In this document: positions 5,528 through 23,290 of the stretch, piece after piece | Layout of the letters: each line of letters begins with the position of its first letter | Position numbering within the stretch: position 1 is the first letter of the stretch | NCBI RefSeq assembly: GCF_036421915.1 | Contig: NZ_JAZGOM010000007.1 | DNA length: 24,000 nt | From: Georgenia wangjunii | GTDB lineage: Bacteria > Actinomycetota > Actinomycetes > Actinomycetales > Actinomycetaceae | Reading direction: 5' to 3' (one strand) | Program-made: the position numbers and the translations under genes | Notes under the pieces: generated by a model | The model's input: only the letters and a program-made list of their open reading frames with translations | Told to the model about the DNA's origin: nothing | The model's database searches: none

Positions 5528-5528
5528 A

Positions 5529-5558
5529 TTGACACCCCGGAAGCGGCCGTGCGATGCT
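5529..5558 (+). promoter_or_regulatory. candidate promoter of the ABC/GH3 operon (-35 TTGACA 5529-5534; weak -10-like GATGCT 5553-5558, 18-bp spacer)
   Basis: A consensus -35 hexamer was read directly. The -10 assignment is weak. The site is about 40 nt upstream of the SBP start codon. Confidence 0.4.
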
Positions 5559-5599
5559 CGCCGCGTTCTTGCAGTCAACGACGACGAAGGAAGCTCACT

Positions 5600-6919
5600 A
5601 TGGCGAGCAGGCGTTTCCTGTCCACCGTGGCCCTCGGGGCCAGTGCGGCCGTGATGCTGGCAGCGTGCGGGGGCGGTGACAGCGACACCGACGGTGCCGG
5701 CGGATCGACCGCCACCGGCGGCGGGGGCGGCGGCGACGTCACCCTCACGTGGTGGCACAACTCCAACTCCGACCCCGGCAAGGCGTACTACGAGGAGGTC
5801 GCGGCCGACTTCGAGGCCGCGAACGAGGGCGTGACCATCGAGATCAGTGCGCTCGCGCACGAGGACATGCTCACGCGGCTCGACGCGGCGTTCCAGACCG
5901 GCGACGCGCCGGACGTGTACATGGAGCGTGGCGGCGGCGAGCTCGCCTCCCACGTCGAGGCGGGCCTGACGATGGACCTCAGCGAGGTCGCGGCCGAGGA
6001 GATCGAGATGATCGGCCCCTCGGTCGCGGGCTGGCAGTACGAGGACAAGACCTACGCCCTGCCGTTCTCCGTGGGCGTCGTCGGGTTCTGGTACAACACG
6101 GCGATGTTCGAGGAGGCCGGCATCACGGAGGCCCCCGAGACGATGGACGACCTCTACGCGGCGATCGACGCGCTCAAGGACTCCGGCGTCGAGCCGATCT
6201 CCGTGGGCGCGGGCGACAAGTGGCCCGCAGCCCACTACTGGTACTACTTCGCGGTCCGCGAGTGCAGCGAGGAGACGCTCGTCGCTGCCGGGGAGAGCAT
6301 GGACTTCTCGGACGAGTGCTTCATCCGCGCCGGTGAGGACCTCGAGGAGCTCGTCGCGGCCGAGCCGTTCAACTCCGGCTTCCTCGGCACCCCGGCCCAG
6401 ACGGGCGCGACGAGCGCCTCCGGCCTCCTCGCCACCGGCAGGGTCGCCATGGAGCTCGCCGGCCACTGGGAGCCCGGCGTCATGCAGGGCCTGACCGAGG
6501 ACAACGAGGGTCTCGGCGAGAACACGGGCTGGTTCCCGTTCCCGACGGTCGAGGGCGGCGAGGGCGACCCCGCGGCGCCGCTCGGCGGTGGTGACGCCTG
6601 GGCCTGCTCGGCGGACGCCCCGCCCGAGTGCGTCGACTTCATCCGGCACATGCTCAGCGACGAGGTCCAGACCGGCTTCGCCGAGCTCGACATGGGTGTA
6701 CCGACCAACCCCAACGCGACCGGGTCGATCACCAACCCGGCGCTCGCCGACCTCGTGACGGTCCGTGACGAGGCCCCCTACGTCCAGCTCTACCTGGACA
6801 CGCTGTTCGGGGAGAACGTCGGTGGCGCGATGAACGACGCGATCGCCCTCATGTTCGCGGGCCAGGCCACGCCGCAGGACATCGTGGACGCCTCGCAGGC
6901 CGCAGCAGACAACGCGTGA
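5600..6919 (+). CDS. ABC transporter extracellular solute-binding lipoprotein (CUT1 sugar family; bxlE-like position)
   Basis: I place the start at ATG 5600, preceded by GAAGGAAG. The N-terminus MASRRFLSTVALGASAAVMLAAC has a lipobox (LAAC) followed by a Gly/Asp-rich linker, then a family-1 SBP body. The 5492 start in the track would run through the operator/promoter region. Confidence 0.9.
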   Translation: MASRRFLSTVALGASAAVMLAACGGGDSDTDGAGGSTATGGGGGGDVTLTWWHNSNSDPGKAYYEEVAADFEAANEGVTIEISALAHEDMLTRLDAAFQTGDAPDVYMERGGGELASHVEAGLTMDLSEVAAEEIEMIGPSVAGWQYEDKTYALPFSVGVVGFWYNTAMFEEAGITEAPETMDDLYAAIDALKDSGVEPISVGAGDKWPAAHYWYYFAVRECSEETLVAAGESMDFSDECFIRAGEDLEELVAAEPFNSGFLGTPAQTGATSASGLLATGRVAMELAGHWEPGVMQGLTEDNEGLGENTGWFPFPTVEGGEGDPAAPLGGGDAWACSADAPPECVDFIRHMLSDEVQTGFAELDMGVPTNPNATGSITNPALADLVTVRDEAPYVQLYLDTLFGENVGGAMNDAIALMFAGQATPQDIVDASQAAADNA

Positions 6920-7929
6920 GTGACGTGGCAGAGAACGTGACCGCCCCCCGGGCGGATGCGGCCACTGCCACCACACCCCACGGTTCGCGTGCCGCGGGAG
7001 GTCGGCGTGGCTCCGGTCCGCTCTCCATGTCCGGGCGCAAGCGGCTCGAGATCGCGTTCTTCGTGGGCCCTGCGCTCGCCCTGTTCGCCGTCTTCGTCGT
7101 CGTCCCGGTGGTCCAGGCGGTGCGCTACTCGACGTTCCGCTGGAACGGCTTGGGCCCGCTCGACGACTTCATCGGGTTCCAGAACTACGCGAGCGCCCTG
7201 CGCGACAACGTCTTCACCGACGCCGTCATGCACAACCTCACGATCGTCGTCCTGTCGATCCTCATCCAGCTCCCGCTCGGCCTGGCCATCGCGCTCCTGC
7301 TCAACCGGGAGATGTGGGGCCGGACGATCATGCGGGTCGTCATCTTCGTGCCGTACGTCCTGGCCGAGGTCGTCGCCGGCGTCATCTGGCTCATGTTGCT
7401 CCAGCCGGGCGGGCTCGTGGACGCCCTCTTCGACTCCCTCGGGCTCGGCGGGCTCAGCCAGCTGTGGCTCGGCGACCCGGACGTCGCGCTCTACACCGTC
7501 ATGGTCGTCCTCACGTGGAAGTACCTCGGGCTGGCGATCATCCTCTTCCTCGCCGGCCTCCAGGGCGTCCCGACGGACCTGTACGAGGCCGCCCAGCTCG
7601 ACGGCGCGTCGTGGTGGCAGGTGCAGCGCCGGATCACGATCCCGCTGCTCGGCCCGACGATCCGCACGTGGGGCTTCCTGTCGATGATCGGGTCGCTCCA
7701 GCTCTTCGACATGGTCTGGATCCTCACGAAGGGCGGACCCGCCAACTCGACGATGACGATGGCGACGTACCTCATCAACCAGGGCACGGACCGCAGCCTG
7801 TACGGCTACGCGTCCGCGGTGGCGGTGCTCCTCTTCGGGATCTCGCTCGTCATCGCGGCCTTCTACCAGTTCTTCGTCCTGCGCCGGGACAACCCCGACG
7901 CCCCCGCCCCGCGGAAGGTGAAGCGATGA
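6916..7929 (+). CDS. carbohydrate ABC transporter permease (MalF/LacF-like; bxlF-like position)
   Basis: Six-TM permease with the EAA-type loop YEAAQLDGASWWQVQRRITIPLL. GTG 6916 overlaps the SBP stop. An in-frame ATG at 7027 (MSGRKRLEIAFFVG) is an equally plausible start. Confidence 0.88.
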   Translation: MSDVAENVTAPRADAATATTPHGSRAAGGRRGSGPLSMSGRKRLEIAFFVGPALALFAVFVVVPVVQAVRYSTFRWNGLGPLDDFIGFQNYASALRDNVFTDAVMHNLTIVVLSILIQLPLGLAIALLLNREMWGRTIMRVVIFVPYVLAEVVAGVIWLMLLQPGGLVDALFDSLGLGGLSQLWLGDPDVALYTVMVVLTWKYLGLAIILFLAGLQGVPTDLYEAAQLDGASWWQVQRRITIPLLGPTIRTWGFLSMIGSLQLFDMVWILTKGGPANSTMTMATYLINQGTDRSLYGYASAVAVLLFGISLVIAAFYQFFVLRRDNPDAPAPRKVKR

Positions 7930-8825
7930 GCGCCCCCGTCACCACCCCGGCGCCAGGCCGCCCGGCGGTCCTCGGTACGACGCCCCGCCGGCGCCGCAGC
8001 AGCAACGCGTTCCGCGGCGGCAACCCGCTCGTGTACGCCGCGGCGTTCGTCGTCCTCGCCGCGACCCTGGGCCCCGTCATCTACGCGATCCTCGGCGGCT
8101 TCCGGTCCACCCCGCAGCTCGCCGCGGACCCGGTGGGCCTGCCCGACCCGTGGGTGCTGACGAACTACACGAACGTCCTCACGTCGGGAGCGTTCTGGCG
8201 CTTCGCCCTCAACTCCACCATCGTCGCCCTCGTGACGACGGCCATGGTCGTCGTCTTCGGCGTCATGGCCGCCTACCCGCTCGCGCGCTACCGGTTCCGG
8301 GGACGCGAGGCGCTCAACCTCATGTTCACCCTCGGGCTGCTGTTCCCGCTGACGGTGGCGATCATCCCGCTCTTCCTCATGCTGCGGGACATGGGCCTGA
8401 CGAACACGTTCTGGGGGGTGGCGCTGCCGCAGGCGGCGTTCGCCCTGCCGATGACGATCGTCATCCTGCGCCCGTTCCTCATGGCGCTGCCCAAGGAGCT
8501 CGAGGAGGCGGCCATGCTCGACGGCACCTCCCGCATCGGCTTCTTCTGGCGGATACTCATCCCGCTGTCCGGGCCCGCGATGGTGACCGTCGGGGTCCTC
8601 GCGTTCGTCGCGTCGTGGAACGCCTACCTCCTGCCCCTGCTCATCCTCAACGACCCGGCCGCGCAGACCCTGCCGCTCGGGGTGGCGAGCTTCTCCAGCC
8701 AGTACGCCCAGGACACCGCGGGCGTGCTCGCCTTCACGTCGCTGGCGATGATCCCCGCGCTCGTCTTCTTCCTCGCGATGGAGAAGCGCATCGTCAACGG
8801 GCTCCAGGGCGCCGTCAAGGGCTGA
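7926..8825 (+). CDS. carbohydrate ABC transporter permease (MalG/LacG-like; bxlG-like position)
   Basis: ATG 7926 overlaps the upstream stop (ATGA) and is preceded by GGAAGGTGA. The product is 299 aa with the EAA loop EEAAMLDGTSRIGFFWRILIPL. The 7314 start in the track is an out-of-frame overlap artefact. Confidence 0.9.
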   Translation: MSAPVTTPAPGRPAVLGTTPRRRRSSNAFRGGNPLVYAAAFVVLAATLGPVIYAILGGFRSTPQLAADPVGLPDPWVLTNYTNVLTSGAFWRFALNSTIVALVTTAMVVVFGVMAAYPLARYRFRGREALNLMFTLGLLFPLTVAIIPLFLMLRDMGLTNTFWGVALPQAAFALPMTIVILRPFLMALPKELEEAAMLDGTSRIGFFWRILIPLSGPAMVTVGVLAFVASWNAYLLPLLILNDPAAQTLPLGVASFSSQYAQDTAGVLAFTSLAMIPALVFFLAMEKRIVNGLQGAVKG

Positions 8826-8862
8826 TCTCGGCCCCGATCACACAGAGAACGAAGGAAGAACC

Positions 8863-11175
8863 GTGGCAGACGTACAGGTGTGGACCGAGCGCGCAGCCGG
8901 GGCCCCGGCGAGCGAGCGCGTCGCCGCGCTCATGGCCGAGATGACGCTCGAGGAGAAGCTCGCGCAGATCGTGGGTCTGTGGGTGGGCGCCGGGGCGGAC
9001 GGCGAGGTCGTCGCCCCGCTCCAGGACGCCATGCTGGGGGAGACGGCACCGGAGTTCGAGACGTTCGCCACGAACGGGCTCGGCCACCTCACCCGGGTCT
9101 TCGGGACCCGGCCGGTCGAGCCCGCCGTCGGGCGCCGCGCCCTGCGGGACGCCCAGCGCTGGCTCGTCACCCGCACCCGCCTCGGCATCCCGGCCATCGC
9201 CCACGAGGAGTGCCTCACCGGGCTCGCGGCGTGGAAGGCGACGACCTTCCCGGCGCCGCTGTCGTGGGGCGCGAGCTTCGACGCGGACCTCGTCGAGCAG
9301 GTCGGGGCCGCGATCGGGGAGAGCATGGCGCGCCTCGGGGTGCACCAGGGCCTCGCCCCGGTGCTCGACGTCGTCCGCGACGCGCGCTGGGGTCGCGTCG
9401 AGGAGTGCATCAGCGAGGACCCCTACGTCGTCGGCACCGTCGGCACCGCCTACGTCCGGGGCATGCAGAGCGCCGGGGTCATCGCGACCCTCAAGCACTT
9501 CGTCGGGTACTCCGCCTCGCGTGCTGGGCGCAACCTCGCCCCCGTCAGCGCGGGCCCGCGCGAGGTGGCCGACGTGCTCCTCGTCCCGTTCGAGATGGCC
9601 GTGCTCGACGGCGGGGCGCGCTCGGTCATGCACTCCTACACGGACGTCGACGGCATGCCGGCCGCTGCCGACGCGCAGCTGCTCACCGGGCTCCTGCGCG
9701 AGCGGTGGGGCTTCGACGGCACGGTCGTCGCCGACTACTTCGGCGTCGCTTTCCTCCACACGCTCCACGCCGTGGCGGAGGACCTCGCCGACGCCGCGCA
9801 CCAGGCGCTCGCCGCGGGCATCGACGTCGAGCTGCCCACCGGCAACGCCTACCTCGCGCCGCTCACCGCGGCCGTCGAGTCCGGACAGGTCCCCGTCGCG
9901 CTCGTCGACCGGGCGCTCGCGCGGGTCCTGCGCGAGAAGGAGGCGCTCGGCCTCCTCGACGACGACTTCTCCGCCGAGCCCGACGGCGACGTCGACCTCG
10001 ACCCGGCGGAGCACCGGGCGCTCGCCGCCCGCCTCGCCGAGGAGTCGGTCGTGCTCCTCACAAACGACGGAACCCTCCCGCTGCGGGAGCCCGCCCGGGT
10101 CGCCGTCGTCGGCCCCAACGCCGACCGCGCCGAGGCGCTGTTCGGCTGCTACTCCTTCGCCAACCACGTCCTCGGGCAGCACCCGGGCACCGAGCTCGGC
10201 ATCGACGTGCCCACGGTGCTCGGGGCGCTGAGCGCCGAGCTCGCCGGCGCCACGGTGACGTACGCCCACGGATGCGCCGTCGACGACGCGGACCGGTCCG
10301 GCATCCCGGCGGCGGCCGAGGCGGCCGCGGAGGCCGACGTCGCGATCGTCGTCGTCGGGGACCAGGCCGGGCTCTTCGGTCGCGGGACGAGCGGGGAGGG
10401 CTGCGACCGCGACGACCTCGAGCTGCCCGGCGTCCAGCGCGAGCTCGTCGAGGCGGTCCTCGCGACCGGGACCCCGGTCGTCCTCGTCATGGTGACCGGC
10501 CGCCCCTACGCCGTCGACTGGGCGCTCGGGCGGTGCGCCGCCGTCGTCCAGGCGTTCTTCCCGGGCGAGGAGGGGGCCGCGGCCGTGGCGGGCGTCCTGT
10601 CCGGGCGCGTCAACCCGTCCGGGCGGCTGCCCGTCACCCTGCCGCGCTCGGCGGGCGCGCAGCCCTACTCCTACCTCCATGCCCGGCTCGGTGGCGCGTC
10701 GTCCGTGAGCAACGTGCCGACGCTGCCCGCGCTGCCCTTCGGGCACGGGCTGTCGTACACCTCGTTCGCCTACTCGGCCTTCCGCGTGAGCCAGCAGGAG
10801 GTCTCCACCGGCGGGTCGATCGGGGTGCGCGTCACGGTGCGCAACGACGGCGACCGGGCGGGCGCCGAGGTCGTCCAGCTCTACGGGCACGACGTCGTCG
10901 GCTCGATCACGCGGCCCGTCGCGCAGCTGCTCGCCTACGCGCGGGTCGAGCTCGCGCCGGGGGAGAGCGCCACCGTCGACCTCACCGTGCCGACGACGCG
11001 CCTCGCGTTCAGCGACCGGCGGATGCGCCGCGTCGTCGAGCCGGGGGCGGTCGACCTGTGGATCGGGCGCTCGTGCGCTGAGCGGGTGCTCGAGGGGCGC
11101 GTCGAGCTCGTCGGCGACGTCCACGAGGTGACCGTCGACGACGAGAGGTGGTCCGACGTCGTCGTCACGCGCTGA
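8863..11175 (+). CDS. glycoside hydrolase family 3 (beta-xylosidase/beta-glucosidase type; bxlA-like position), no signal peptide
   Basis: 770-aa ORF with an SD (GAAGGAAG) upstream. The GH3 N-terminal domain has the nucleophile motif GFDGTVVADY, followed by a C-terminal alpha/beta domain and a fibronectin-like terminal domain. It is the last gene of the ABC operon. Confidence 0.9.
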   Translation: MADVQVWTERAAGAPASERVAALMAEMTLEEKLAQIVGLWVGAGADGEVVAPLQDAMLGETAPEFETFATNGLGHLTRVFGTRPVEPAVGRRALRDAQRWLVTRTRLGIPAIAHEECLTGLAAWKATTFPAPLSWGASFDADLVEQVGAAIGESMARLGVHQGLAPVLDVVRDARWGRVEECISEDPYVVGTVGTAYVRGMQSAGVIATLKHFVGYSASRAGRNLAPVSAGPREVADVLLVPFEMAVLDGGARSVMHSYTDVDGMPAAADAQLLTGLLRERWGFDGTVVADYFGVAFLHTLHAVAEDLADAAHQALAAGIDVELPTGNAYLAPLTAAVESGQVPVALVDRALARVLREKEALGLLDDDFSAEPDGDVDLDPAEHRALAARLAEESVVLLTNDGTLPLREPARVAVVGPNADRAEALFGCYSFANHVLGQHPGTELGIDVPTVLGALSAELAGATVTYAHGCAVDDADRSGIPAAAEAAAEADVAIVVVGDQAGLFGRGTSGEGCDRDDLELPGVQRELVEAVLATGTPVVLVMVTGRPYAVDWALGRCAAVVQAFFPGEEGAAAVAGVLSGRVNPSGRLPVTLPRSAGAQPYSYLHARLGGASSVSNVPTLPALPFGHGLSYTSFAYSAFRVSQQEVSTGGSIGVRVTVRNDGDRAGAEVVQLYGHDVVGSITRPVAQLLAYARVELAPGESATVDLTVPTTRLAFSDRRMRRVVEPGAVDLWIGRSCAERVLEGRVELVGDVHEVTVDDERWSDVVVTR

Positions 11176-11210: not shown

Positions 11211-11286
11211 TCGTCCGGGAATGGGCTCACGCGGTCGTCGTGCATCGCCGTCGTGACCCCCGGAGCGGCGCGCGTCACATCGGCGC

Positions 11287-12237
11287 GTGACAGAATCCAG
11301 TAATCCGGATACTGTCCGATGCATGGCCCTGCCGAAGATCCTCATGTCTCGCGTCGGATACGTCACCGCGCAGCTCGCCGAGATGCTCTCCGGGTACGAG
11401 CTCGGCGACCGGATCCCGAATGTCGAGGGACTCACCGCCCAGCTCCACTGCGGCAAGGGCACCGTCCAGGCCGCCTTTGCCGCGCTCGAGCAGGCGGGTG
11501 CCCTCGCCCTTCGCTCGCGCGGGCACCTCGGGACGTTCATCGACGCCATCGACCACCCGCTCCTGTGGGAGCTCGCCGGCCATCGCACCGTCACCATCGC
11601 CATGCCGCTTCCGTACTCGCGACGCTACGAGGGACTCGCGACGGGCCTGCACGCGACGTTCCGGGACCACAGCATCCCGATGTCGCTCATGTTCATGCGC
11701 GGCTCCGTCGAGCGGGTCGGGGCGCTGCGGGAGGATCGCACGGACCTCGTCGTCCTCTCGGCGCTCGCCGCCTCGTACGAGCCGGACGTCGAGGTCGTCC
11801 ATGACTTCGGGCCGGAGACCTACGTGCACTCGCACTGCGTCATCGTCAGCGAGGGGCGCGACCCGCAGGACCCCACGCTGCGCGTCGCGGTCGACCGCTC
11901 GTCCGCGGACCTTCTCGCGCTCGTCGAGCAGGTCTTCGGCGAGCTGCCCCCCGAGCGCCTCGTCGAGGTGTCCTACAACCAGCTCGACCACGCGTTCCAC
12001 TCCGGCGCTATCGACGCGACCGTGTGGAACGCCGACGAGGTCCGGGCGCACATCACCGCGCCCATCGACGTCCACCCGCTCCCGCAGGCGGCGGGCATTG
12101 ACAACACACGCGCCGTCGTCGTGCGGATGCGCAAGGAGCAGCCCGTCGCCGTCGGCGTCCGGGAAGCCCTGACCGACCCCGCCGTCACGGCGATCGCCGC
12201 GGGCGTGGTCGACGGCCGCACCACGCCCACCTACTAG
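11287..12237 (+). CDS. YhfZ-family putative transcriptional regulator (GntR-like wHTH plus ligand-binding-like C-terminal domain)
   Basis: wHTH signature IPNVEGLTAQLHCGKGTVQAAFAALEQAGALALRSRGHLGTFI, followed by an alpha/beta domain. It resembles E. coli YhfZ as I recall it and is the first gene of the yhf-like operon. The start is uncertain (GTG 11287, ATG 11323 or ATG 11344). Confidence 0.78.
   Translation: MTESSNPDTVRCMALPKILMSRVGYVTAQLAEMLSGYELGDRIPNVEGLTAQLHCGKGTVQAAFAALEQAGALALRSRGHLGTFIDAIDHPLLWELAGHRTVTIAMPLPYSRRYEGLATGLHATFRDHSIPMSLMFMRGSVERVGALREDRTDLVVLSALAASYEPDVEVVHDFGPETYVHSHCVIVSEGRDPQDPTLRVAVDRSSADLLALVEQVFGELPPERLVEVSYNQLDHAFHSGAIDATVWNADEVRAHITAPIDVHPLPQAAGIDNTRAVVVRMRKEQPVAVGVREALTDPAVTAIAAGVVDGRTTPTY
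11298..11314. promoter_or_regulatory. AT-richer near-palindrome CAGTA-ATCCGGA-TACTG at the 5' edge of the yhfZ-like gene
   Basis: 5-bp perfect arms (CAGTA/TACTG) flank a TCCGGA core. This is the lowest-GC spot in the 11176-11345 region. It lies inside the annotated ORF if GTG 11287 is the start, and upstream of it if ATG 11323 or ATG 11344 is used. Confidence 0.35.
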
Positions 12238-12244
12238 GAGAACC

Positions 12245-12622
12245 ATGGACCCGACCCTCCGCCAGCGCCTCGAGCTCTTCCGCACGATGGACGAGGTCCC
12301 CGCCGGCGTCGTCGACCTCGTCGAGGACGAGCTCGTCCGCGTGGACCCGGCGGGCCGCCTCAGCGACGACAGCGCCGGGATGTTCGTCTCGCACGCCGTC
12401 ATGGCGTTCAGCCGGCTCCTCGGCGACGAGGACCCGGTTGACGCCCCGAGCGACGCCGTCTTCGACCAGGTCCTCACGGAGGACCCGACGGCCTTGGCGC
12501 GGGCCGGCGCACTCGCCGAGCGGGCGCGCCAGCGCCTCGGCCGCGCCCTGCCCGACGCCGAGGTGAAGTACCTCACCATCCACCTCGCCGTGCTCGCACA
12601 GCATCTTTCAAAGGAGAACTGA
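12245..12622 (+). CDS. stand-alone PRD-domain protein (YhfY-like)
   Basis: 125-aa all-helical ORF with two His in PRD-like contexts: FVSH50AVMAF at 12392-12394 and YLTIH113LAVL at 12581-12583. Size and position match E. coli YhfY. Confidence 0.72.
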   Translation: MDPTLRQRLELFRTMDEVPAGVVDLVEDELVRVDPAGRLSDDSAGMFVSHAVMAFSRLLGDEDPVDAPSDAVFDQVLTEDPTALARAGALAERARQRLGRALPDAEVKYLTIHLAVLAQHLSKEN

Positions 12623-12984
12623 TGAGAATCATCGCCGGAGGTGTCGGCAAGTCCCAGGTCGCCGACGTCCTCAAGACCCTTGTCCGGCCCACAGACGTCG
12701 TCGTCGTGGGGAGCGACATGGACGCCGCGATCAAGCTGAAGACGGGGCAAGCCGACTACTACCTCGGTACGTGCCACACGGGCGCCGGCGCGAGCCTTGG
12801 CGTCCTCGTCGGGATGCTGGGCGGCGACAAGTGCCACACCTTCGCCCGTCACGTCCCCACGGCGGAGGGCGTCGACGCGGCGCTCGCAGCCGGCAAGGTC
12901 GCCTTCGGCTTCTCCGTCGACCAGATCGCCGAGGCCGTTCCGGTCCTGTGGGACGCCCTCATGCGTAAGGAATCGGACTCGTGA
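12622..12984 (+). CDS. DUF2620-family protein (YhfU-like)
   Basis: 120 aa. The ATG overlaps the upstream stop (TGATG). The motif GQADYYLGTCHTGAGASLG and the C-terminal GKVAFGFSV resemble E. coli YhfU as I recall it. Confidence 0.78.
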   Translation: MRIIAGGVGKSQVADVLKTLVRPTDVVVVGSDMDAAIKLKTGQADYYLGTCHTGAGASLGVLVGMLGGDKCHTFARHVPTAEGVDAALAAGKVAFGFSVDQIAEAVPVLWDALMRKESDS

Positions 12985-14387
12985 TCACCCCCGTCCTCTC
13001 CGCCGTTGCCGACGCGGGCGGCAGCGTCAGCTTCGCCACGTGGCAGTCCGTCATCGTCATGGTGACGACCGCCTTCGCCGCGGTCATCGCCCACTACGGG
13101 CTCGCAGTCTTCAACGACGGCGCCCGCCCCTTCATGCTCGACTTCATCCGCGGCAACACGAGCCGGATGGCGACGGCGACGATCGTCTTCGGCCTCTCCG
13201 CGGGCTTCATCTTCGGCCTCGGCGCGCCCATGGCGCTCTCGACCGGCGTCCTCAACCCGTGGCTCATCTTCCTTCCTGCCGAGATCCTCGGCCTGCTCGC
13301 GCCGTGGCGGTGGCTCGCCGGTGCCGCCGGGCTCGCGTGGGGCGCGGTGTGCGCCTACGGACTCTCCGCAGTCAATAGCGCCGCCCAGCAGCTCCCGGTC
13401 GACTTCATCACGGCGCTCCAGCAGATCGGCACGCCGATCCTGTGGCTCTTCGCCATGTTCCCCGTCATCGCCGTGGCGCGGCAGTTCGGGCGCACCAGGG
13501 GCCTCATCACGTTCGGCGCCGAGGCTGCCGTCATCGTCGCCTCCACCGTCCTCTTCCCGAGCATGTTCGCCGGCTCCCTCGCCATGGCGATCGGCGTCAT
13601 CCTTCTGCTCGTCTTCGCCCTGACGAAGGACCGCTCCGACAAGCGGGTGGAGGTCGCAGCGCTGGCCGGCATGGACGAGGCGACCCGCGCCGAGGTGGCC
13701 GCCGCCAAGGCCTCCTCCGAGGAGGCTGTCAACCAGCTCTTCGGCCCGAACGCTGAGCGGCTGCGCAAGAACGTGCCCTGGCTCGCGATCCTCGGCGGAC
13801 TCGTCGCGGCGCTATCGGCGACGCACATCTTCGCGGGCGGGGAGGCGACGAGCTTCCTCATCGCCGACGGCAACATCGTCGAGGCCGCCCAGGTCGACTT
13901 CTATCGGGCCTTCGGGTTCATCCCCCTCATCGCCACGACGGCGCTCGCCTCAGGTGCGTACGCCCTAGCCGGTTTCACGTTCGTCTACCCGGCGGGATAC
14001 CTCCTCGGGCACGTCATCGACAACCCCGCCGTCGCGCTGGCTGTGGCGTTCGTCGTCGGCGCCCTCATCTTCTGGGCCGAGGTTATCGCCCTGAGCGCCC
14101 TCGGGAAGTGGCTGCAGCGCTGGCCCTCCGTGCGTGACTCGGCCGACCACATCCGCAACGCCATCCACGAGTCCCTCCAGGTCGCGATCCTCGTCGGCTC
14201 CCTCATGGCGGCCCTCGCCATGGGTGGTGGCCTCGGCATCTTCATCGTCGGCGGGCTCTACCTGCTCAACGACGCGATCGGCCGCCCCGTCGTGCGGATG
14301 GCCGCCGGACCCGCCGCCGTCATCGTCGGCGGCATCGTGCTCAACCTGCTCTACCTCGTGGGGCTGTTCACCCCCGTTGCCGGCTGA
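12981..14387 (+). CDS. YhfT-like polytopic membrane transporter
   Basis: 468 aa with a GTGA overlap with the upstream gene. There are about 10-12 hydrophobic segments split by a charged central loop (KDRSDKRVEVAALAGMDEATRAEVAAAK). It is always paired with DUF2620 in the yhf cluster. Confidence 0.78.
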   Translation: MITPVLSAVADAGGSVSFATWQSVIVMVTTAFAAVIAHYGLAVFNDGARPFMLDFIRGNTSRMATATIVFGLSAGFIFGLGAPMALSTGVLNPWLIFLPAEILGLLAPWRWLAGAAGLAWGAVCAYGLSAVNSAAQQLPVDFITALQQIGTPILWLFAMFPVIAVARQFGRTRGLITFGAEAAVIVASTVLFPSMFAGSLAMAIGVILLLVFALTKDRSDKRVEVAALAGMDEATRAEVAAAKASSEEAVNQLFGPNAERLRKNVPWLAILGGLVAALSATHIFAGGEATSFLIADGNIVEAAQVDFYRAFGFIPLIATTALASGAYALAGFTFVYPAGYLLGHVIDNPAVALAVAFVVGALIFWAEVIALSALGKWLQRWPSVRDSADHIRNAIHESLQVAILVGSLMAALAMGGGLGIFIVGGLYLLNDAIGRPVVRMAAGPAAVIVGGIVLNLLYLVGLFTPVAG

Positions 14388-14401
14388 GCGGGGGGCGCAT
14401 C

Positions 14402-15373
14402 ATGACGATCCAGACCGTCGACGGCCCGCTCTCGCCGGAGGAGGTCGACGGCGTCGTGCTCCCGCACGAGCACCTCGCCATCGACCTGCGTACCGAGACC
14501 GACCGGGCCGGCGTGCTCGACCACCCCGACCTCGTGAGCACAGAGCTTGCCGCAGCGAGGGAGCACGAGGGCCTGGCGCTCGTCGTCGACCAGACGTGCC
14601 GTGGCATGGGCCGCGACGTCGGGGCGCTGCGCACGATCGCGCAGCGCTCCGGCGTCGCGGTGGTGGCCAGCACCGGGTGGTACTACGAGCGCTTCCACCC
14701 GGAGCGCGAGCCGGGGGACGACGTCGGCGCCGCGACCGAGCTCCTCGTGGCCGACCTCACCGTGGGCCTGGACGGCACGGACGCCCTCGCCGGCGTCATC
14801 GGCGAGGTGGGCACGCACGGCGACGAGCCGTCCACCGCGGAGCGGGTGAGCCTGCTCGCTGCGGGCCGCGCGGCCGTCGCGACGGGCCGCCCGGTGTCCA
14901 CGCACGCCCATCTTGGTCGCGGAGCGCTCGCCCAGCTCGACCTGCTCCTCGGCACCGGGGTCGAACCCCAGCGGATCAGCATCGGCCACCAGGACCTCAC
15001 GGACGCCACTGCCCAGCACGTGGCCCTCGCCGAGGCCGGGGCGTACGTCGCGTTCGACACGGCGGGCAAGGACTCCTACCAGCCGGACGGCGTGCGCCTG
15101 CGGCTCGTCCTCGCGCTCCTCGAGCGCGGCCTCGGTCGCCACGTGCTCCTCAGCAACGACATCTCGCGCCACGGCTACCTCACCGCCCACGGCGGTCAGG
15201 GCTTCCGGCACGTCCTCGGCCCGTTCGCCGCCCGGCTGCGGGCGGCGGGCGTGGACGAGACCACCCTCGGCGACCTCTACCGCGCCAACGCGCTGCGCTG
15301 GCTCAGCGGGCGCGACCACGTCGGGACGCCGCCCACCGGTGGCGCTACGCACACGAAAGGACTGACGGCATGA
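14402..15373 (+). CDS. php: phosphotriesterase-homology protein (amidohydrolase superfamily, binuclear metal centre)
   Basis: 323 aa. Putative metal ligands are H22/H24 (LPHEHL, 14465-14473), E135 (GVIGEVG), H168 (VSTHAH), H196 (IGHQD) and D253 (LSNDIS). Their spacing equals that of the E. coli PHP ligands as I recall them (H12, H14, E125, H158, H186, D243; constant +10 offset). Confidence 0.9.
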   Translation: MTIQTVDGPLSPEEVDGVVLPHEHLAIDLRTETDRAGVLDHPDLVSTELAAAREHEGLALVVDQTCRGMGRDVGALRTIAQRSGVAVVASTGWYYERFHPEREPGDDVGAATELLVADLTVGLDGTDALAGVIGEVGTHGDEPSTAERVSLLAAGRAAVATGRPVSTHAHLGRGALAQLDLLLGTGVEPQRISIGHQDLTDATAQHVALAEAGAYVAFDTAGKDSYQPDGVRLRLVLALLERGLGRHVLLSNDISRHGYLTAHGGQGFRHVLGPFAARLRAAGVDETTLGDLYRANALRWLSGRDHVGTPPTGGATHTKGLTA

Positions 15374-16491
15374 CGCCGAGCACCGCGGGGCGCCCCACCC
15401 TGCCGGCCACTACCCCGCTCCCCGCGCTGGACACCGCTGGCGCTTTCGCCCTGCAGCAGCGGCTCGTCGCGGCGACGTGCGCGTCGCTGCCCGGGGAGGC
15501 CCTGTTCCGGGCGGACGTCGGCGTCGTCCCCGGTCTCGGTCGGCCCGAGACCACCGCCCGGGTGGAGCGGGTCCTCGCCGAGGCGCTCGGCGCCGAGGAC
15601 GCGTGCCTCGTCCAAGGGGCCGGCACCGGCGCGATCCGCGCCGCGCTCTCGGCGGGCCCCTGGCGCGAGGGCGAGCGCAGGCTGCTCCTCCACGACGCCC
15701 CCGACTACTCGACGACGGCGACGACGTTCCGCGACGCCCTCGTCGAGCCGGTCCGCGTCGACATGGACGACGCGGACGCGATCGCCGCCGCGCTCGCCGA
15801 TCCGGCGAGCCCCCGGTGGGTGTACGTCCAGCACACCCGGCAGCGACTCTCCGACGCGTTCAACCCCATGGACGTCGTCGCGCTCGCTCGCGAGCACGGC
15901 CGCCGGGTCGTCGTCGACGAGAACTACGCCGTCGTACGCACACCGGGGATCGGCGTCGAGCACGGCGCGGCCGCGTCGGCCTTCTCGCTCTTCAAGCTCC
16001 ACGGCCCGGAGGGCGTCGGCGTCGTCCTCGGGGATGCCGACGTCGTCGCCGCCGCGCACGCGGCCAACTACTCCGGCGGCGGCCAGGTCCAGGGCCACCA
16101 GGCGATCGCGGCGCTCCAGGCCCTCGTCTCGGCGCCCCTCAACTGGGCGCGCCAGTCGGAGGAGGTCTACCGCCTAGCGGAGGCCCTCAGGGCTGGGGCC
16201 GTTCCCGGCATCGCCGACGCCGCCGTCGCCAACGTCCAGGACCTGTGCGTCGTCGCCCTCCTAGAGACCCCCACCGCCGACGACGTCCGGCGCCGCGCCG
16301 CGGAGAACGGTGCCGCTCCGTACCCCGTCGGCTCGAACTCGCGGTACGAGATCGCGCCGATGGTGTACCGGATGTCCTCCTCCACGCTCGAGGCCCAGCC
16401 TGAGCTGCGCGACTGGACCCTCCGGATCAACCCCATGCGCGCGAGCGCGGACCTCGTCGTCGACATCCTCCGCCGGTCTCTCGCGGCCTGA
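15370..16491 (+). CDS. YhfS-like fold-type-I PLP-dependent enzyme
   Basis: ATG 15370 overlaps the php stop (ATGA), giving 373 aa. It has VVVDENY (the Asp typical of fold type I) and SLFK209LHGPEG (candidate Schiff-base Lys). The upstream 412 codons of track ORF 14134..16491 are an out-of-frame overlap of yhfT/php. Confidence 0.78.
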   Translation: MTPSTAGRPTLPATTPLPALDTAGAFALQQRLVAATCASLPGEALFRADVGVVPGLGRPETTARVERVLAEALGAEDACLVQGAGTGAIRAALSAGPWREGERRLLLHDAPDYSTTATTFRDALVEPVRVDMDDADAIAAALADPASPRWVYVQHTRQRLSDAFNPMDVVALAREHGRRVVVDENYAVVRTPGIGVEHGAAASAFSLFKLHGPEGVGVVLGDADVVAAAHAANYSGGGQVQGHQAIAALQALVSAPLNWARQSEEVYRLAEALRAGAVPGIADAAVANVQDLCVVALLETPTADDVRRRAAENGAAPYPVGSNSRYEIAPMVYRMSSSTLEAQPELRDWTLRINPMRASADLVVDILRRSLAA

Positions 16492-16500
16492 AAGGCTCCC

Positions 16501-17676
16501 GTGTTCCTCGAAACGACCCAGCACCGTAACCCCGCGCTCATCGACGTGGCGCACGAGCTCCATGCCCGCGGGCAGATCGACCCCGACACCTACGTCATCG
16601 ACCGCGACACGGTCGCGGAGAACGCCCGGGCGATCGCGGGCACGGCGGCTGCGCACGGCGTCGTGCCGTGGTTCGTCGTCAAGCAGATCGGGCGCAACCC
16701 CCTCCTCGCAGCGACGATCGCGGAAGCCATCCCGCGCGCCGCGGCGATCGACGTCCGCGAGGTGTCCGGTCTCCTCCGCGCAGGCGCCCGCCTCGGCAAC
16801 GTCGGCCACCTCGTCCAGATCCCGCGCCGCTCGCTGCCCCGCGTCCTGTCCGCCCGCCCCGCGTACGCGACCGTCTACGACGTCGCCAACCTCGAGGCGG
16901 TCGACGCCGCCGCAGCCGAGCTCGGGACCGTCCAGGACGTCATCCTCCGGATCGCGGGCGACCCGGAGACGACGTACCCCGGCCAGGAGGGCGGCATCGA
17001 GGCGGCGGACGTGCTGGCCGTGCTCGAGCGTGCGTCCCGGCTCGCCCACGTGCGGGTCGCCGGTGTCACCGGGTTCCCGTGCGTCCTCTTCGACGCGCGC
17101 ACAGGCGTCACAACGCTCACCCCGACGTTCGACCGGGTCATGGCGGCGGCAGAGGTCATGCGCGCCTACGGGGTCGAGCCCGTCGTGAGCCTGCCGAGCC
17201 ACTCGAGCTGCTCGACGATCCCCCTCCTGGCCGCGGCCGGCGCGACGCACGTCGAGCCGGGGCACGCCCTCACGGGGACCACTCCCGAGCACGTGGTCCG
17301 AGACGACCTCGAGGAGCGGCCGGCGCTCGTCTACGTCTCCGAGGTGGCGCAGGTCGGGCCGCGGGCGGCGCTGTTCGGCGGCGGCTTCTACGCCCGCGGG
17401 CGCGCGAGGAACGTGCTCGTCGGCTCCGGCGACCGCGCCCGCCGCGGCCACCTCGCCACAGCCCCCGGGGAGAACATCGACTACTACAGGCGCTTCGACC
17501 TCGACCCAGGGTCTGAGCCGGCCGTGCTGGGCGAGGTCGCCCTCATGGCGTTCCGCACGCAGATCTTCGTCACCCGCTCGCGGGTGGCCGTGGTCTCGGG
17601 AATCGCCAGCGGCCGGCCGGTGGTCGACGGCATCTTCGACTCGCTCGGCAACGCGGTCCCGGAGGAGACGGTATGA
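16501..17676 (+). CDS. YhfX-like fold-type-III PLP enzyme (alanine-racemase N-terminal TIM-barrel type)
   Basis: 391 aa with a GTG start 9 nt after the upstream stop. The N-terminus MFLETTQHRNPALIDVAHELHARGQIDPDTYVIDRD and the candidate PLP Lys in FVVK61QIGRNP resemble E. coli YhfX as I recall it. Confidence 0.82.
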   Translation: MFLETTQHRNPALIDVAHELHARGQIDPDTYVIDRDTVAENARAIAGTAAAHGVVPWFVVKQIGRNPLLAATIAEAIPRAAAIDVREVSGLLRAGARLGNVGHLVQIPRRSLPRVLSARPAYATVYDVANLEAVDAAAAELGTVQDVILRIAGDPETTYPGQEGGIEAADVLAVLERASRLAHVRVAGVTGFPCVLFDARTGVTTLTPTFDRVMAAAEVMRAYGVEPVVSLPSHSSCSTIPLLAAAGATHVEPGHALTGTTPEHVVRDDLEERPALVYVSEVAQVGPRAALFGGGFYARGRARNVLVGSGDRARRGHLATAPGENIDYYRRFDLDPGSEPAVLGEVALMAFRTQIFVTRSRVAVVSGIASGRPVVDGIFDSLGNAVPEETV

Positions 17677-18905
17677 CCGCGACGGTGCTCGTCCTCGACG
17701 GGTTCGGCATCGGGGCGATGGGGGACGCCGGCATGCTGCGGACCGAGGACGCCCGGGCGGACACCCTCGGGTCCCTGGTGCGTTGGGCGCGGGAGACGCG
17801 TGGGCGCGAGCTGGACGTCCGGCACCTTGCCGGCCTGGGCCTCGCCGCCCTGCGGCCCGACCTAGGGCTAGCCATCGAGACCGCCGGCGTGCGGGCCACC
17901 GCCCGCCGCAGCGCACTCGGCTACCCCGGCGCGGACACCTTCGCCGGGCACCAGACGATGATGGGCGCGGACATGTCCCGCGTCGTTGTCTGCCCCTTGA
18001 GCCAGCGCATCGACGAGGTGCGCGCCGCCCTCGAGGAGGCGGGGCACCGGACGGCGCTCCTCGACGGGAAGCCGGTCATCGTCGTCGACGACGCGATGCT
18101 CGTCCACGACAATCTCGAGGCGGACCCGGGCCTCAACTGGAACGTCTCGGCGCGGCTCGAGCTCGTACCGTGGGAGCAGATCCTCGCCGCCGCGGAAGCA
18201 GTGCGCGCTGTCGCGCCCGTCGCGCGGGTCATCGCCGTCGGTGGGCGCTCCGACCGGCCCCTCACGGAGTCCGTGCGGCCGGGGGACTTCGGCACGATCG
18301 GCATGGACACCCCGGCCAGCGGGTTCTACCGCAACGGCGGGCTCCAGGTGCAGCACCTCGGCGCGGACATCGACCACAGCCGCCAGCTGCCCGAGCTTGC
18401 GGCGCGGGCGGGGCTGCCGGTCACGCTCGTCGGCAAGGCCGCGGACATCCTCGTCACCGACGCGGAGGTGACCCGCCTGCCCGGTGTCGAGACGGAGGAG
18501 ATCCTCACCGACACGCTGCGGGCGGCCACCGGCGGGGGCCTCGTCGTGTCGAACGTCCAGCAGACCGACCTCGCGGGCCACCAGCAGGACCCCGGCCGCT
18601 TCGTCACCATGCTCGAGATGGTCGATGCGGCGGTCCCCGAGCTCGTCGCGTCCCTCCGGGACCCCGGTGACCTCCTCGTCGTCGTCGCGGACCACGGCAA
18701 CGACCCGCTCATCGGGCACGGCTACCACACGCGCGAGTACGTGCCGGTCCTCGCCGTCACCCCCGGGCGGGCGGCCACGGGGGTCGGCGAGGTCCTCACC
18801 TCCCTGGCCGACGTCGGTGCGTCCGTCGCGGCCGCGCTCGGACTGGACCCGACGGCCCTCGGCAACGGTCGCCCGACGGACCTCATGGTCGCCGGACGGC
18901 CGTAG
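17673..18905 (+). CDS. YhfW-like phosphopentomutase-family mutase (alkaline-phosphatase/metalloenzyme superfamily)
   Basis: 410 aa with an ATGA overlap with yhfX-like. DeoB-like motifs are VLVLD9GFGIG, GADT89FAGHQ (nucleophile Thr position), DLAGHQQD and VVADHGNDP. Confidence 0.85.
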   Translation: MTATVLVLDGFGIGAMGDAGMLRTEDARADTLGSLVRWARETRGRELDVRHLAGLGLAALRPDLGLAIETAGVRATARRSALGYPGADTFAGHQTMMGADMSRVVVCPLSQRIDEVRAALEEAGHRTALLDGKPVIVVDDAMLVHDNLEADPGLNWNVSARLELVPWEQILAAAEAVRAVAPVARVIAVGGRSDRPLTESVRPGDFGTIGMDTPASGFYRNGGLQVQHLGADIDHSRQLPELAARAGLPVTLVGKAADILVTDAEVTRLPGVETEEILTDTLRAATGGGLVVSNVQQTDLAGHQQDPGRFVTMLEMVDAAVPELVASLRDPGDLLVVVADHGNDPLIGHGYHTREYVPVLAVTPGRAATGVGEVLTSLADVGASVAAALGLDPTALGNGRPTDLMVAGRP

Positions 18906-20585: not shown

Positions 20586-20618
20586 GCGACACGTGTGCGA
20601 CACGTATGCGACACGGCG
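20586..20618 (+). repeat. three tandem 11-bp direct repeats GCGACACG-NNN (20586, 20597, 20608) just upstream of the integrase ATG
   Basis: Read directly as gcgacacgtgt gcgacacgtat gcgacacggcg. The 8-nt core is perfect in all three copies and the period is 11 bp, about one helical turn. The first junction forms the palindrome ACACGTGT. Confidence 0.85.
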
Positions 20619-20627
20619 GGGGCCGAG

Positions 20628-21749
20628 ATGGCAGGCAAGCGGGCGGGGTTCGGACAGGTCACCAAGCTGCCCTCAGGCCGGTACCGCGCCCGCTACCAGG
20701 TGCCGGACGCCTTCCCCCGGCAGTACGTAAACGGGCCGACGACGTTTGCGCGCAAGGTCGACGCCCAGGACTGGCTCGCTGCCCAACGCACGCTCATCGT
20801 CCAGGGTCTCCTCCGGCCGGCGACGATCGCTTCCCGGGTCACGCTTGCCGAGTACGCCGAGCGCTGGCTCGTCAGCAGACGCAACTCCAAGGGCGAACCG
20901 CTGCGCCCCACGACCGCGCACGTCTACCGCCACTACCTCGACCGGCACATCCTCCCGGCCCTCGGGCCAAGACCGCTGCCGCAGATCACGCGGGAGGACG
21001 TCGAGCGCTGGTTCGCCGGCCTCCTCCCGAATCGCCCGACGCTCCGTGCACGCACGTACGCGCTCCTGAAGACGATGTTCAACAGCGCCGTCGACGACGG
21101 CCTGGTCCCGACGAACCCGTGCAGGATCCGAGGAGGCAGCGGCAGCCGGGCCGTGGTTCAGCCGGTCGTCCTCAGCCCGGCCGAGGTTCGTGCCCTGGCC
21201 GAGGAGATGCCGGACCACCTGCGGCTGAGCATCTACCTCGGCGCCTGGTGCCAGCTCCGCTCGGGCGAGCTGCTCGAGCTGAGGCGCGGCGACATCGGCG
21301 AAAGGTCGGTGCGGATCAGCAGGGGAGTGACGTGGGTGAAATCCCAGCCGATCGTCGGGCCGCCGAAGACGGACGCCGGAGTCCGCGCCGTGGCCATCCC
21401 CCCACATATACAACCCGCCATCGGCGAGCACTTCGCCACCTATGCGAACCCGGGGAACCACGGGCTGCTGTTCCCCGCGCGCGCGGGCGTCGACCGGCAG
21501 ATCTACGGCCCCACCTTCGCCGACACGTTCAAGCGAGCCGCGATACGCGCAGGGCTCCCTGAGTCGCTCCGGTTCCACCACCTGAGGCACACCGGTCTGA
21601 CGATGCTGGCGCAGGCGGGCGCCACCCTGGCCGAGCTGCAGGCGCGGGCCGGACACGCCACGCCTGGAATCGCCATGCGCTACCAGCACGCTGTGGCGGC
21701 ACGCGACGAGCAGATGGCCGACGCGCTCTCAACACTGGCCGAAACGTAG
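20628..21749 (+). CDS. tyrosine-type site-specific recombinase (phage/integrative-element integrase)
   Basis: The N-terminus MAGKRAGFGQVTKLPSGRYRARYQVPD is typical of actinobacterial integrases. It has a SAM-like core-binding domain. The catalytic signature is LRSGELLEL (Arg), HHLRHTG (HxxR) and GHATPGIAMRYQH (His..Tyr). ATG 20628 is preferred over GTG 20595, which lies inside the repeat array. Confidence 0.9.
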   Translation: MAGKRAGFGQVTKLPSGRYRARYQVPDAFPRQYVNGPTTFARKVDAQDWLAAQRTLIVQGLLRPATIASRVTLAEYAERWLVSRRNSKGEPLRPTTAHVYRHYLDRHILPALGPRPLPQITREDVERWFAGLLPNRPTLRARTYALLKTMFNSAVDDGLVPTNPCRIRGGSGSRAVVQPVVLSPAEVRALAEEMPDHLRLSIYLGAWCQLRSGELLELRRGDIGERSVRISRGVTWVKSQPIVGPPKTDAGVRAVAIPPHIQPAIGEHFATYANPGNHGLLFPARAGVDRQIYGPTFADTFKRAAIRAGLPESLRFHHLRHTGLTMLAQAGATLAELQARAGHATPGIAMRYQHAVAARDEQMADALSTLAET

Positions 21750-21924: not shown

Positions 21925-22024
21925 CGCAGCGCTCAGCCATGCCGCGCGACGATGATGCGTACTAGGCTGACTCTGCGGGGACACTCGCGTACCGGGTGGT
22001 TGATGCACGATTCTAGGAGTTGCG

Positions 22025-22639
22025 ATGTCGGTCGTTGATAGCCATGGTCGTGAGGGACGAATCGCCGCCTTGAGCGTATTGCACCAGACCGAGACTTCTT
22101 CGAACGTCGGCGAACTCCAAGCGACCACAGCGATCTCGTTGGGCCTCCTCACGTACCTGGCAGCCACGATATTTCTCTTCGACGATCTAGCACCGGAACT
22201 TTTGGCTTTGCTACCACTTGGCGTGCTATTTGGTTGCTCGTATCAGATGCTTCGCGCGGCCGTCGTTGTGCGAAGGGCTGCGCTTACGCGAGCGTACGAG
22301 CGCTGTCTGGCGGAGGCTATCGGCTTCCCTGACGAGTACGCACAAGGGAAGCTTGGGTCGCCGTTCTACGCGTCGCTGGATGACATCGGCGTGATTCGTG
22401 AGCGTCGCGAACCAGGATGGTTGCCTAGGTTGTTCGTAGCCGCAGTCGCGTACCTCGGCTTATATGGTTTATCTGTGCTATATACGACCCTCGTACTTAT
22501 AGAGGTGTGGGACCAGGTCGGCGCGGCATGGCTGACTTTCGGTTGTACTATCGCGTACGCGATATTCTGGCTAGGGTTCTTGGTTGCTGCTTTCATTTCC
22601 TTTCAGCCGAGGAGTCCTTCGAAGCTCCACATCAAGTAG
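22025..22639 (+). CDS. hypothetical 4-TM membrane protein (no family recognised)
   Basis: ATG 22025 is preceded by AGGAG at -11 to -7. The product is 204 aa with hydrophobic segments at about 33-53, 59-76, 137-160 and 167-193, and a ~60-aa charged loop (RRAALTRAYERCLAEAIGFPDEYAQGKLGSPFYASLDDIGVIRERREPGW). Its codon usage is much lower in GC than the host's. Confidence 0.68.
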   Translation: MSVVDSHGREGRIAALSVLHQTETSSNVGELQATTAISLGLLTYLAATIFLFDDLAPELLALLPLGVLFGCSYQMLRAAVVVRRAALTRAYERCLAEAIGFPDEYAQGKLGSPFYASLDDIGVIRERREPGWLPRLFVAAVAYLGLYGLSVLYTTLVLIEVWDQVGAAWLTFGCTIAYAIFWLGFLVAAFISFQPRSPSKLHIK

Positions 22640-22651
22640 CGGCCGGAACCC

Positions 22652-23290
22652 GTGCTAACTGGCGCCGTTTCCATCCGTTACCGAGTTGCACTTTTAGGAT
22701 CCGCTACGTCGGGAATTGTCCTGCAGATCATCCAAGGCGAGGATCCAACGCCGACGTACGAGTACTTCACGATCTGGAGCGCGGCCGCCCTCGTCCTCTA
22801 TGGCTCGAACCTTCTCTCGCGCTTGCCTGCTGCGGAATCCTATGTTCGAAACGCCGCGTCGGCAGGTGCCCTTCTTTCCGCAGTCGTCTACCTGGCCGCG
22901 ATCGCGCCCGTCAACGGAATGGGTTCCGAACCGACGACGGTGGCGGCGAACGCGGTTCTACACTTGGTTGTGCCCGTCGTAGTGATCTTGCTTTACGCGA
23001 GTAAGTACGACTTGCAGTTCCCACCTCGAGCGATCGTAACAACCTTAACGTTCCCGGCTGCGTATCTCGGATGGGCCATATTGACGAGCGCCGTCGGCGG
23101 GGCGCCTCCGGTGTATGTTTTTCTTGACGTGCGACATGTCGGCGTCTTAGGAGTGCTGGGTGCAACGTTAGGAGGTTCGATTGTATACCTCCTAGTCGCG
23201 CTCTTTCTCTCCCGGTTGACTGTACGTAAGAGTCGCCGCGACGGCGAGACTCAGAGACGTAGCTCTGGGGCGACCTCCGGTGCCAGCTAG
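22652..23290 (+). CDS. polytopic membrane protein, possibly of the FAR-17a/AIG1 (bacterial Pr6Pr) family
   Basis: 212 aa with a GTG start 13 nt after the previous stop and 5-6 hydrophobic segments. The motifs YFT40IWS, AVLH104LVVP and VYVFLD resemble the conserved Thr, His and FLD elements of that family as I recall them. No alignment was run, so the family call is tentative. Confidence 0.6.
   Translation: MLTGAVSIRYRVALLGSATSGIVLQIIQGEDPTPTYEYFTIWSAAALVLYGSNLLSRLPAAESYVRNAASAGALLSAVVYLAAIAPVNGMGSEPTTVAANAVLHLVVPVVVILLYASKYDLQFPPRAIVTTLTFPAAYLGWAILTSAVGGAPPVYVFLDVRHVGVLGVLGATLGGSIVYLLVALFLSRLTVRKSRRDGETQRRSSGATSGAS

Follow-up and report, generated by a model that had tools for sequence, protein, structure and literature searches.

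The 24,000-nucleotide stretch of Georgenia wangjunii DNA analysed here (NCBI RefSeq assembly GCF_036421915.1, contig NZ_JAZGOM010000007.1; hereafter the window) carries eight co-directional genes that are almost certainly the orthologue, with its enzymes intact, of the E. coli yhf/php operon. The original prediction treated four of these genes as a self-standing core; they encode the metal-dependent hydrolase Php, two pyridoxal phosphate (PLP) enzymes resembling YhfS and YhfX, and a YhfW-like phosphomutase. They are in fact the 3′ half (14402-18905) of a module whose eight genes move together. The locus as a whole is best explained as four working enzymes within an intact, co-transcribed eight-gene catabolic operon for one imported compound, an explanation to which a probability of about one half is assigned. 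That the yhf/php cluster is a catabolic module of some kind is highly probable.

Protein families were assigned by Pfam and NCBIfam scans. The eight genes lie on the plus strand at 11287-18905, in the order Z-Y-U-T-php-S-X-W and with spacings of -4 to 14 nucleotides:

11287..12237, plus strand: YhfZ-type GntR-like regulator (NF041241 YhfZ_full, 280 bits against a cut-off of 260; Pfam YhfZ_C, E 4e-52)
12245..12622, plus strand: YhfY-type stand-alone PRD protein (weak Pfam PRD match, E 1e-3, below cut-off, together with conserved position)
12622..12984, plus strand: YhfU (DUF2620; Pfam DUF2620, E 4e-37)
12981..14387, plus strand: YhfT, polytopic membrane protein and presumed permease (Pfam YhfT, 460 bits)
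14402..15373, plus strand: Php, phosphotriesterase-homology binuclear-metal hydrolase of the amidohydrolase superfamily, 323 amino acids (Pfam PTE, E 2e-49)
15370..16491, plus strand: YhfS-like fold-type I PLP enzyme, 373 amino acids (PDB 4J8L, E 1e-81; Pfam YhfS-like_C, PF22475, E 4e-36)
16501..17676, plus strand: YhfX-like fold-type III PLP enzyme, 391 amino acids (PDB 4KBX, E 4e-72; Pfam Ala_racemase_N, PF01168, and YhfX-like_C, PF21279)
17673..18905, plus strand: YhfW-like phosphomutase of the alkaline-phosphatase superfamily, 410 amino acids (NF009049, 380 bits against a cut-off of 254)

All eight reading frames are open and full length, with overlapping start and stop codons: the start of yhfT overlaps the stop codon of yhfU, the ATG of the YhfS-like gene (15370) overlaps the stop codon of php, and yhfW is translationally coupled to yhfX. 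The G+C content of the window is about 73%, and G+C at third codon positions (GC3) in the operon is about 0.9, matching host genes. The start of yhfZ is ambiguous, being either a GTG at 11287 or an in-frame ATG at 11323. Overlapping the GTG, the more upstream of the two candidates (window 11270-11325), are near-repeats, GCGCGTCAC and GCGCGTGAC, with a GTCAC/GTGAC inverted pair, which may form an operator. An operon scan found no sigma-70-type promoter or intrinsic terminator, although this type of scan is ill-suited to actinobacteria, and no Rfam family reached its gathering score in the window.

In E. coli K-12 the same eight families form the cluster yhfZ-yhfY-yhfX-yhfW-php-yhfU-yhfT-yhfS (b3383-b3376), which, like that of the window, is tight, lies on one strand and encodes identical catalytic residues. 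The window holds all eight families in one co-directional cluster, YhfY being recognised by its weak PRD match and its position. BLASTP pairs seven window proteins significantly with their E. coli counterparts, at identities of 31-44% (31% for YhfZ and 39% for YhfT); the eighth, YhfY, gave no match. Structures exist for E. coli Php (1BF6/4LEF), YhfS (4J8L) and YhfX (4KBX). The two copies differ in gene order, which is Z-Y-X-W-php-U-T-S in E. coli and Z-Y-U-T-php-S-X-W in the window; in host, the window coming from a 73% GC actinobacterium; and in that no frl (fructoselysine) operon adjoins the window copy.

The order Z-(Y)-U-T-php-S-X-W is shared by every one of the 80 actinobacterial loci that a YhfS alignment retrieved, mostly from Streptomyces but also from Jiangella, Cellulomonas, Brachybacterium and Propionibacteriaceae. 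It is found as well in three further genomes, with flanks unlike those of the window, and on one metagenomic contig. The yhfY-type gene occupies the same position in all loci, and His50 of its product is invariant in 67 of 67 homologues. The family is nonetheless sparsely distributed: YhfS_C occurs in two of 40 relatives and in one of 400 other sampled Actinomycetota, and the YhfS family comprises 35 clusters at E <=1e-30 among 1.84 billion representatives. Two plasmids carry variants. That of Cetobacterium somerae (NZ_CP092520.1; locus L091) has the Z-Y-U-T-php-S-X-W order with an amidase gene between yhfT and php; the insert (L091 7048-8079) is annotated as an ‘amidase family protein’ and has a weak Pfam Amidase match (E 1.6e-4). 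That of Bacillus thuringiensis (NZ_CP126475.1; L090 5924-16451) has Y-U-T-php-S-X without yhfW, followed by three ATP-grasp genes. One of these is annotated as hypothetical, with ATP-grasp Pfam matches, and an MFS transporter gene also lies downstream. No yhfZ was found in this locus by tblastn, and two hypothetical genes stand upstream of Y.

The original prediction named catalytic residues in all four enzymes and held each enzyme to be catalytically competent. A script check placed every named residue at the position given for it, and alignment with solved relatives puts these residues at homologous positions, where a mismatch would have told against the proposal. In conservation alignments of 75-82 homologues per protein, drawn from the 80 fetched loci and E. 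coli, the residues are invariant with the sole exception of T89 in YhfW. The four enzymes are therefore predicted, from their sequences, to be competent.

Php retains the ligand set of the PHP subgroup (PF02126), namely an HxH motif, a bridging Glu, two further His and an Asp, with Glu replacing the carboxylated Lys. Its H22, H24, E135, H168, H196 and D253 align with H12, H14, E125, H158, H186 and D243 of the E. coli protein (1BF6/4LEF, E 3e-49). Since the offset is a constant +10, the ligand spacing of the two proteins is identical, as stated in the original prediction. None of the six ligands varies among 80 homologues. The role of the PHP-type bridging Glu, as against the carboxylated Lys of true phosphotriesterases, is reportedly treated in the paper on 1BF6. 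Php scores 194.9 bits on the E. coli Php equivalog model NF007373, where the cut-off is 486, and by NCBI’s rule the sequence is that of a Php-like relative and not an equivalog. It also falls below the cut-off for organophosphate hydrolase (OPH; NF041153), with 61.8 against 500 bits.

The YhfS-like protein shows full-length similarity to 4J8L and carries the pair expected of a fold-type I PLP enzyme, a pyridine-N Asp and a Schiff-base Lys. D183 (VVVDENY) aligns with the PLP Asp of SufS/CsdB in ‘VLVDGAQAV’, and K209 (SLFKL) with the PLP Lys in ‘SGHKLYGP’, which bears out the assignment of both residues; they lie about 26 residues apart and are invariant among homologues. The family profile matches methionine gamma-lyases (E 2e-9) and cysteine desulfurases (SufS; E 3e-7), and by sequence YhfS is nearer to lyase-type enzymes (Cys/Met gamma-lyases and cysteine desulfurases) than to classical aminotransferases. 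A survey of fusions between YhfS and other enzymes yielded no informative fusion. Among the proteins seen, P0176 is an apparent chimera and P0202 has a YhfX C-terminal piece beside a YhfS N-terminal piece. A further protein, the metagenomic P0123 (747 amino acids), is a distant relative in the form of a tandem YhfS-YhfS, with a SelA (PF03841) match at E 6e-15, unlike the window protein.

The YhfX-like protein combines an alanine-racemase-type barrel and a PLP lysine with a C-terminal domain of its own. K61, proposed earlier as a candidate, aligns with E. coli YhfX (4KBX) and with Lys59 of the A. xylosoxidans D-threonine aldolase, and none of 82 homologues lacks it. In that (Alcaligenes) enzyme PLP is bound by Lys59 (PMC4401734). 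The family profile finds D-3-hydroxyaspartate aldolase, D-threonine aldolases and D-threo-3-hydroxyaspartate dehydratase at E 8e-7 to 2e-4, whereas alanine racemase (Alr) is reached only at E 0.33, against 8e-7 for the D-hydroxy-amino-acid aldolases. This difference favours an aldolase/dehydratase-type enzyme, which would cleave a D-beta-hydroxy-alpha-amino acid in an aldol reaction or subject it to beta-elimination, over a racemase. The likeness to the D-threonine aldolase group (4V15, 6QKB, 3WQC) comprises the PLP barrel and its lysine (K61/Lys59) and is confined to the N-terminal barrel: the C-terminal domain (PF21279) is YhfX’s own, and the Mn/Zn ligands of D-threonine aldolase, His347 and Asp349, fall outside the aligned region.

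YhfW passes NF009049 with the full set of catalytic residues. D9, T89, D299-x3-H303 (DLAGHQQD), D340-H341 (ADHGNDP) and H352 align with the B. cereus phosphopentomutase 3M8W, so that the DeoB-type metal and nucleophile motifs claimed for it hold at the level of alignment. These columns are invariant in 75 homologues apart from T89, where four of them have Ser and the other 71 Thr. YhfW and DeoB share the alkaline-phosphatase-type core with its metal Asp/His residues and Thr nucleophile, but the DeoB cap domain has no detectable similarity to that of YhfW, whose cap (about residues 103-249) gave no alignment to 3M8W. YhfW also lies below the DeoB equivalog cut-offs (TIGR01696/NF003766, 87.5 against 341 and 117 against 256 bits).

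A fifth catalytic component may be present in YhfU, since its predicted structure (predicted local distance difference test, pLDDT, 92.7) has an RpiB/LacAB-type fold with an invariant Cys. The best PDB matches of the model are RpiB/LacAB isomerases (TM-score 0.65-0.68, probability 1.0). A search of the ESM Atlas again gave an RpiB/LacAB-like result and also linked YhfU to the SFCGS family (PF14272, TM 0.67), small glycine-rich Cys proteins paired with membrane proteins. Cys51 lies in the loop G-T-C-H-T-G-A-G after strand 3 and is invariant in 79 of 79 homologues. A weak hhalign alignment (E 0.05, probability 1%) sets C51 and T53 of YhfU onto C66 and T68 of the RpiB loop C66-G-T68-G-V-G. Cys66 of RpiB has a catalytic role. 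The resemblance to RpiB/LacAB (PF02502) lies in the fold and, by this weak alignment, in the Cys-x-Thr-Gly-x-Gly loop; YhfU, however, is about 30 residues shorter, has no Pfam PF02502 match and is always paired with the membrane protein YhfT. The N-terminal Asp-His and C-terminal Arg cluster of RpiB are not evident in the YhfU consensus. The yhfU gene stands next to and ahead of yhfT in every case, the rearranged E. coli operon included, and for this reason YhfU may be a Cys protein associated with the transporter and not a free isomerase. It could be an isomerase, or else a carrier that uses its Cys and descends from such an enzyme.

YhfT itself is modelled as all-helical (pLDDT 75.5). A Foldseek search of the PDB returned no hit with E below 0.09, all TM values lying under 0.25, the wide VIA-align search gave a best Z of 6.5 to helical fragments only, and the ESM Atlas returned no usable match. 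A YhfU-YhfT complex prediction scored 0.17 against a mark of 0.32 and is counted neither for nor against an interaction.

The Pfam and NCBIfam scans found no kinase family in the module. As the module encodes a phosphomutase and lacks a kinase, the phosphate would have to be brought in by the substrate itself or supplied by a relay of the phosphotransferase system (PTS). HPr and Enzyme I (EI) are encoded in the window genome and in all five other carriers tested, against a base rate for HPr of 84 in 200 genomes of a phylum sample; the co-occurrence lends weak support, because the carrier genomes are related to one another.

The components could be assembled into a pathway as follows. The module would consist of the regulator YhfZ, the PRD protein YhfY, YhfU and YhfT as an uptake pair, and the enzymes Php, YhfS, YhfX and YhfW. 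The compound would be taken up by YhfT together with YhfU, and would arrive as, or be turned into, a phosphate ester. Php would hydrolyse a lactone, ester or amide ring, and YhfW would shift the phosphate between hydroxyls. The target of YhfX would then be a beta-hydroxy-alpha-amino-acid centre of D configuration, which it would cleave in a retro-aldol reaction or convert by beta-elimination into a keto acid and ammonia, while YhfS would carry out a second PLP-dependent elimination or deamination.

A substrate bearing both a phosphate or sugar-phosphate and an alpha-amino-acid moiety, as proposed in the original prediction, is plausible from the sequences and consistent with all findings. The idea is somewhat strengthened by the relatives of YhfX, by the RpiB/LacAB fold of YhfU and by a parallel cluster encoding a DgaE-family enzyme and KDGP aldolase; the odds are about even that a phosphate and an amino-acid-like centre occur together in the substrate. 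Of the possible classes, phosphorylated amino-sugar acids and their lactones (2-amino-2-deoxy-aldonate type) are the favoured guess, although it is less likely than not that the substrate is an amino-sugar acid. Next in line comes a glycated or ribosylated amino acid. The example offered earlier, a phosphorylated glycated amino acid, found no direct support, the module having neither a deglycase nor a kinase.

The dga pathway offers an analogy. There, PTS phosphorylation is followed by the action of a PLP ammonia-lyase on a 2-amino-2-deoxy-aldonate 6-phosphate. The substrate of DgaE, D-glucosaminate 6-phosphate, is a D-beta-hydroxy-alpha-amino acid with a sugar-phosphate tail, and the results for YhfX and YhfU, taken together, suggest this kind of molecule. 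An element of Enterococcus faecium encodes an SFCGS protein, DUF4312, DUF4311 and DUF4310 proteins, an amidohydrolase, a DgaE-family PLP ammonia-lyase and KDGP aldolase (PMC11934601). The layout of that cluster parallels YhfU/YhfT, Php and a PLP lyase, and its SFCGS proteins resemble the YhfU model. In contrast to the Salmonella D-glucosaminate pathway (dgaABCDEF) and the Enterococcus cluster, the yhf genes include no KDGP aldolase and no mannose-type PTS; they encode in addition a phosphomutase and a PLP enzyme of fold-type III, and by Pfam and NCBIfam YhfS lies outside the DgaE/SelA family. A new route for amino-sugar-acid phosphates, in which YhfU with YhfT would be a PTS-fed phosphocarrier/permease or a transporter-coupled isomerase and YhfX an aldolase or dehydratase acting on the sugar-acid phosphate, is a doubtful proposal.

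Several points weigh against an operon importing and degrading a phosphorylated amino-sugar acid or a related compound. The phosphorylation step is one that we only infer. Neither a ptsH nor a ptsI homologue turned up within about 10 kb of the cluster in any of the 80 actinobacterial loci, the co-occurrence with HPr and EI comes from six related genomes, and the base rate of 84 in 200 includes the unpublished genomes G147, G057, G234, G191 and G096. No EIIB is among the listed structural matches of YhfU, which resembles an isomerase and not a known EIIB, and YhfT matched no solved transporter or EIIC fold. Php is far under the cut-off of the phospho-furanose lactonase model (NF045706; 55.4 against 630 bits). 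YhfS has no DgaE or SelA (PF03841) match at E <=0.01 in the Pfam and NCBIfam scans, and the parallel with the dga pathway is therefore architectural only. YhfW is absent from one Bacillus plasmid variant, where ATP-grasp genes take its place, so that the phosphomutase is not universal in the module. Finally, RefSeq still labels the E. coli yhf genes ‘putative’, and the searchable literature yielded no functional study of yhf/php, only gene lists and unrelated B. subtilis genes of the same names.

Other substrates would give the same enzymes different roles. Were the compound a ribosyl- or pentosyl-amino acid or a nucleoside-like amino acid, resembling S-ribosylhomocysteine, YhfS would free the amino acid, YhfW would serve as a pentose 1-phosphate/5-phosphate mutase and YhfU would act as a pentose-phosphate isomerase feeding the pentose-phosphate pathway. 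Methionine gamma-lyases are the nearest characterised relatives of YhfS, the core of YhfW is phosphopentomutase-like with all catalytic residues present, and YhfU has the ribose-5-phosphate isomerase B fold with its Cys-x-Thr-Gly-x-Gly loop. Such a scheme nevertheless leaves no role for Php or for an aldolase/dehydratase-type YhfX, the module lacks a phosphorylase or kinase for making the pentose phosphate, and YhfW has a cap unlike that of DeoB and misses the DeoB equivalog cut-offs; it is judged unlikely. A phospho- or phosphono-amino compound that is not a sugar, for instance an O-phospho-D-hydroxy-amino acid or the ester of an aminophosphonate, is decidedly unlikely. Php would here cleave a phosphoester, YhfW would be a phosphatase or phosphotransferase and both PLP enzymes would process the released amino acid. 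The membership of Php in the phosphotriesterase family agrees with this, as do the phosphatases and phosphodiesterases in the superfamily of YhfW (which has a weak Pfam Phosphodiest match) and the weak matches of YhfS to 2-aminoethylphosphonate transaminase (E 3e-4 and E 0.07). Php, however, scores 62 against 500 bits on the organophosphate hydrolase model and has the PHP-type Glu bridge, and the RpiB-like YhfU and the PRD protein indicate sugar-type metabolism.

The plasmid variants bear on the idea of an unphosphorylated amide, lactam or small peptide-like compound containing a D-amino acid, which Php (joined by an amidase in some lineages) would open and YhfX and YhfS would degrade, leaving YhfW as an add-on dealing with a side product. 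An amidase gene does stand between yhfT and php in Cetobacterium, amide-forming ATP-grasp genes substitute for yhfW in the Bacillus plasmid variant, and the relatives of YhfX use D-amino acids. Yet YhfW is kept in 75 homologues with conserved catalytic residues and is coupled to yhfX, while YhfU has a sugar-phosphate-isomerase fold, and this alternative is considered improbable. It is scarcely credible that the locus is a decaying, horizontally acquired remnant without function in its host: the cluster is rare and patchy and adjoins an integrase islet, but its eight intact frames, overlapping start and stop codons, host-like GC3 of about 0.9 and full complement of catalytic residues speak against decay.

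The surroundings of the operon appear to be independent of it. Upstream (window 353-11175) is a separate sugar-utilisation region, which is not beside the yhf module in three relatives:

353-1786: FGGY kinase
3069-4364, minus strand: GH10 enzyme
4458-5477, minus strand: LacI regulator
5492-8825: solute-binding protein and two permeases of a sugar ATP-binding cassette (ABC) transporter
8863-11175: GH3 glycosidase

Downstream of the module are an OmpA-like pair and then the integrase islet. A tyrosine integrase (Pfam Phage_integrase) is encoded at 20595-21749, about 1.7 kb 3′ of yhfW, and past it G+C falls to 0.58 (22000-23000); no transfer RNA gene was found in the window. This region looks like a small integrated islet. 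Because the flanks in the window are unrelated to those of three other carriers, the yhf module behaves as a self-contained, mobile accessory operon.

The yhf/php genes have long been an uncharacterised operon of E. coli, even though three of its proteins have crystal structures. The window adds an intact actinobacterial copy of an already known type of cluster and leaves what is known of the family unchanged. The catalytic machinery is strongly conserved across phyla, and the pathway is therefore taken to be real and in use. The search for its substrate is narrowed by the relatives of YhfX to D-configured beta-hydroxy-alpha-amino-acid centres, by those of YhfS to elimination chemistry, and by the fold of YhfU together with YhfW to the handling of sugar phosphates.

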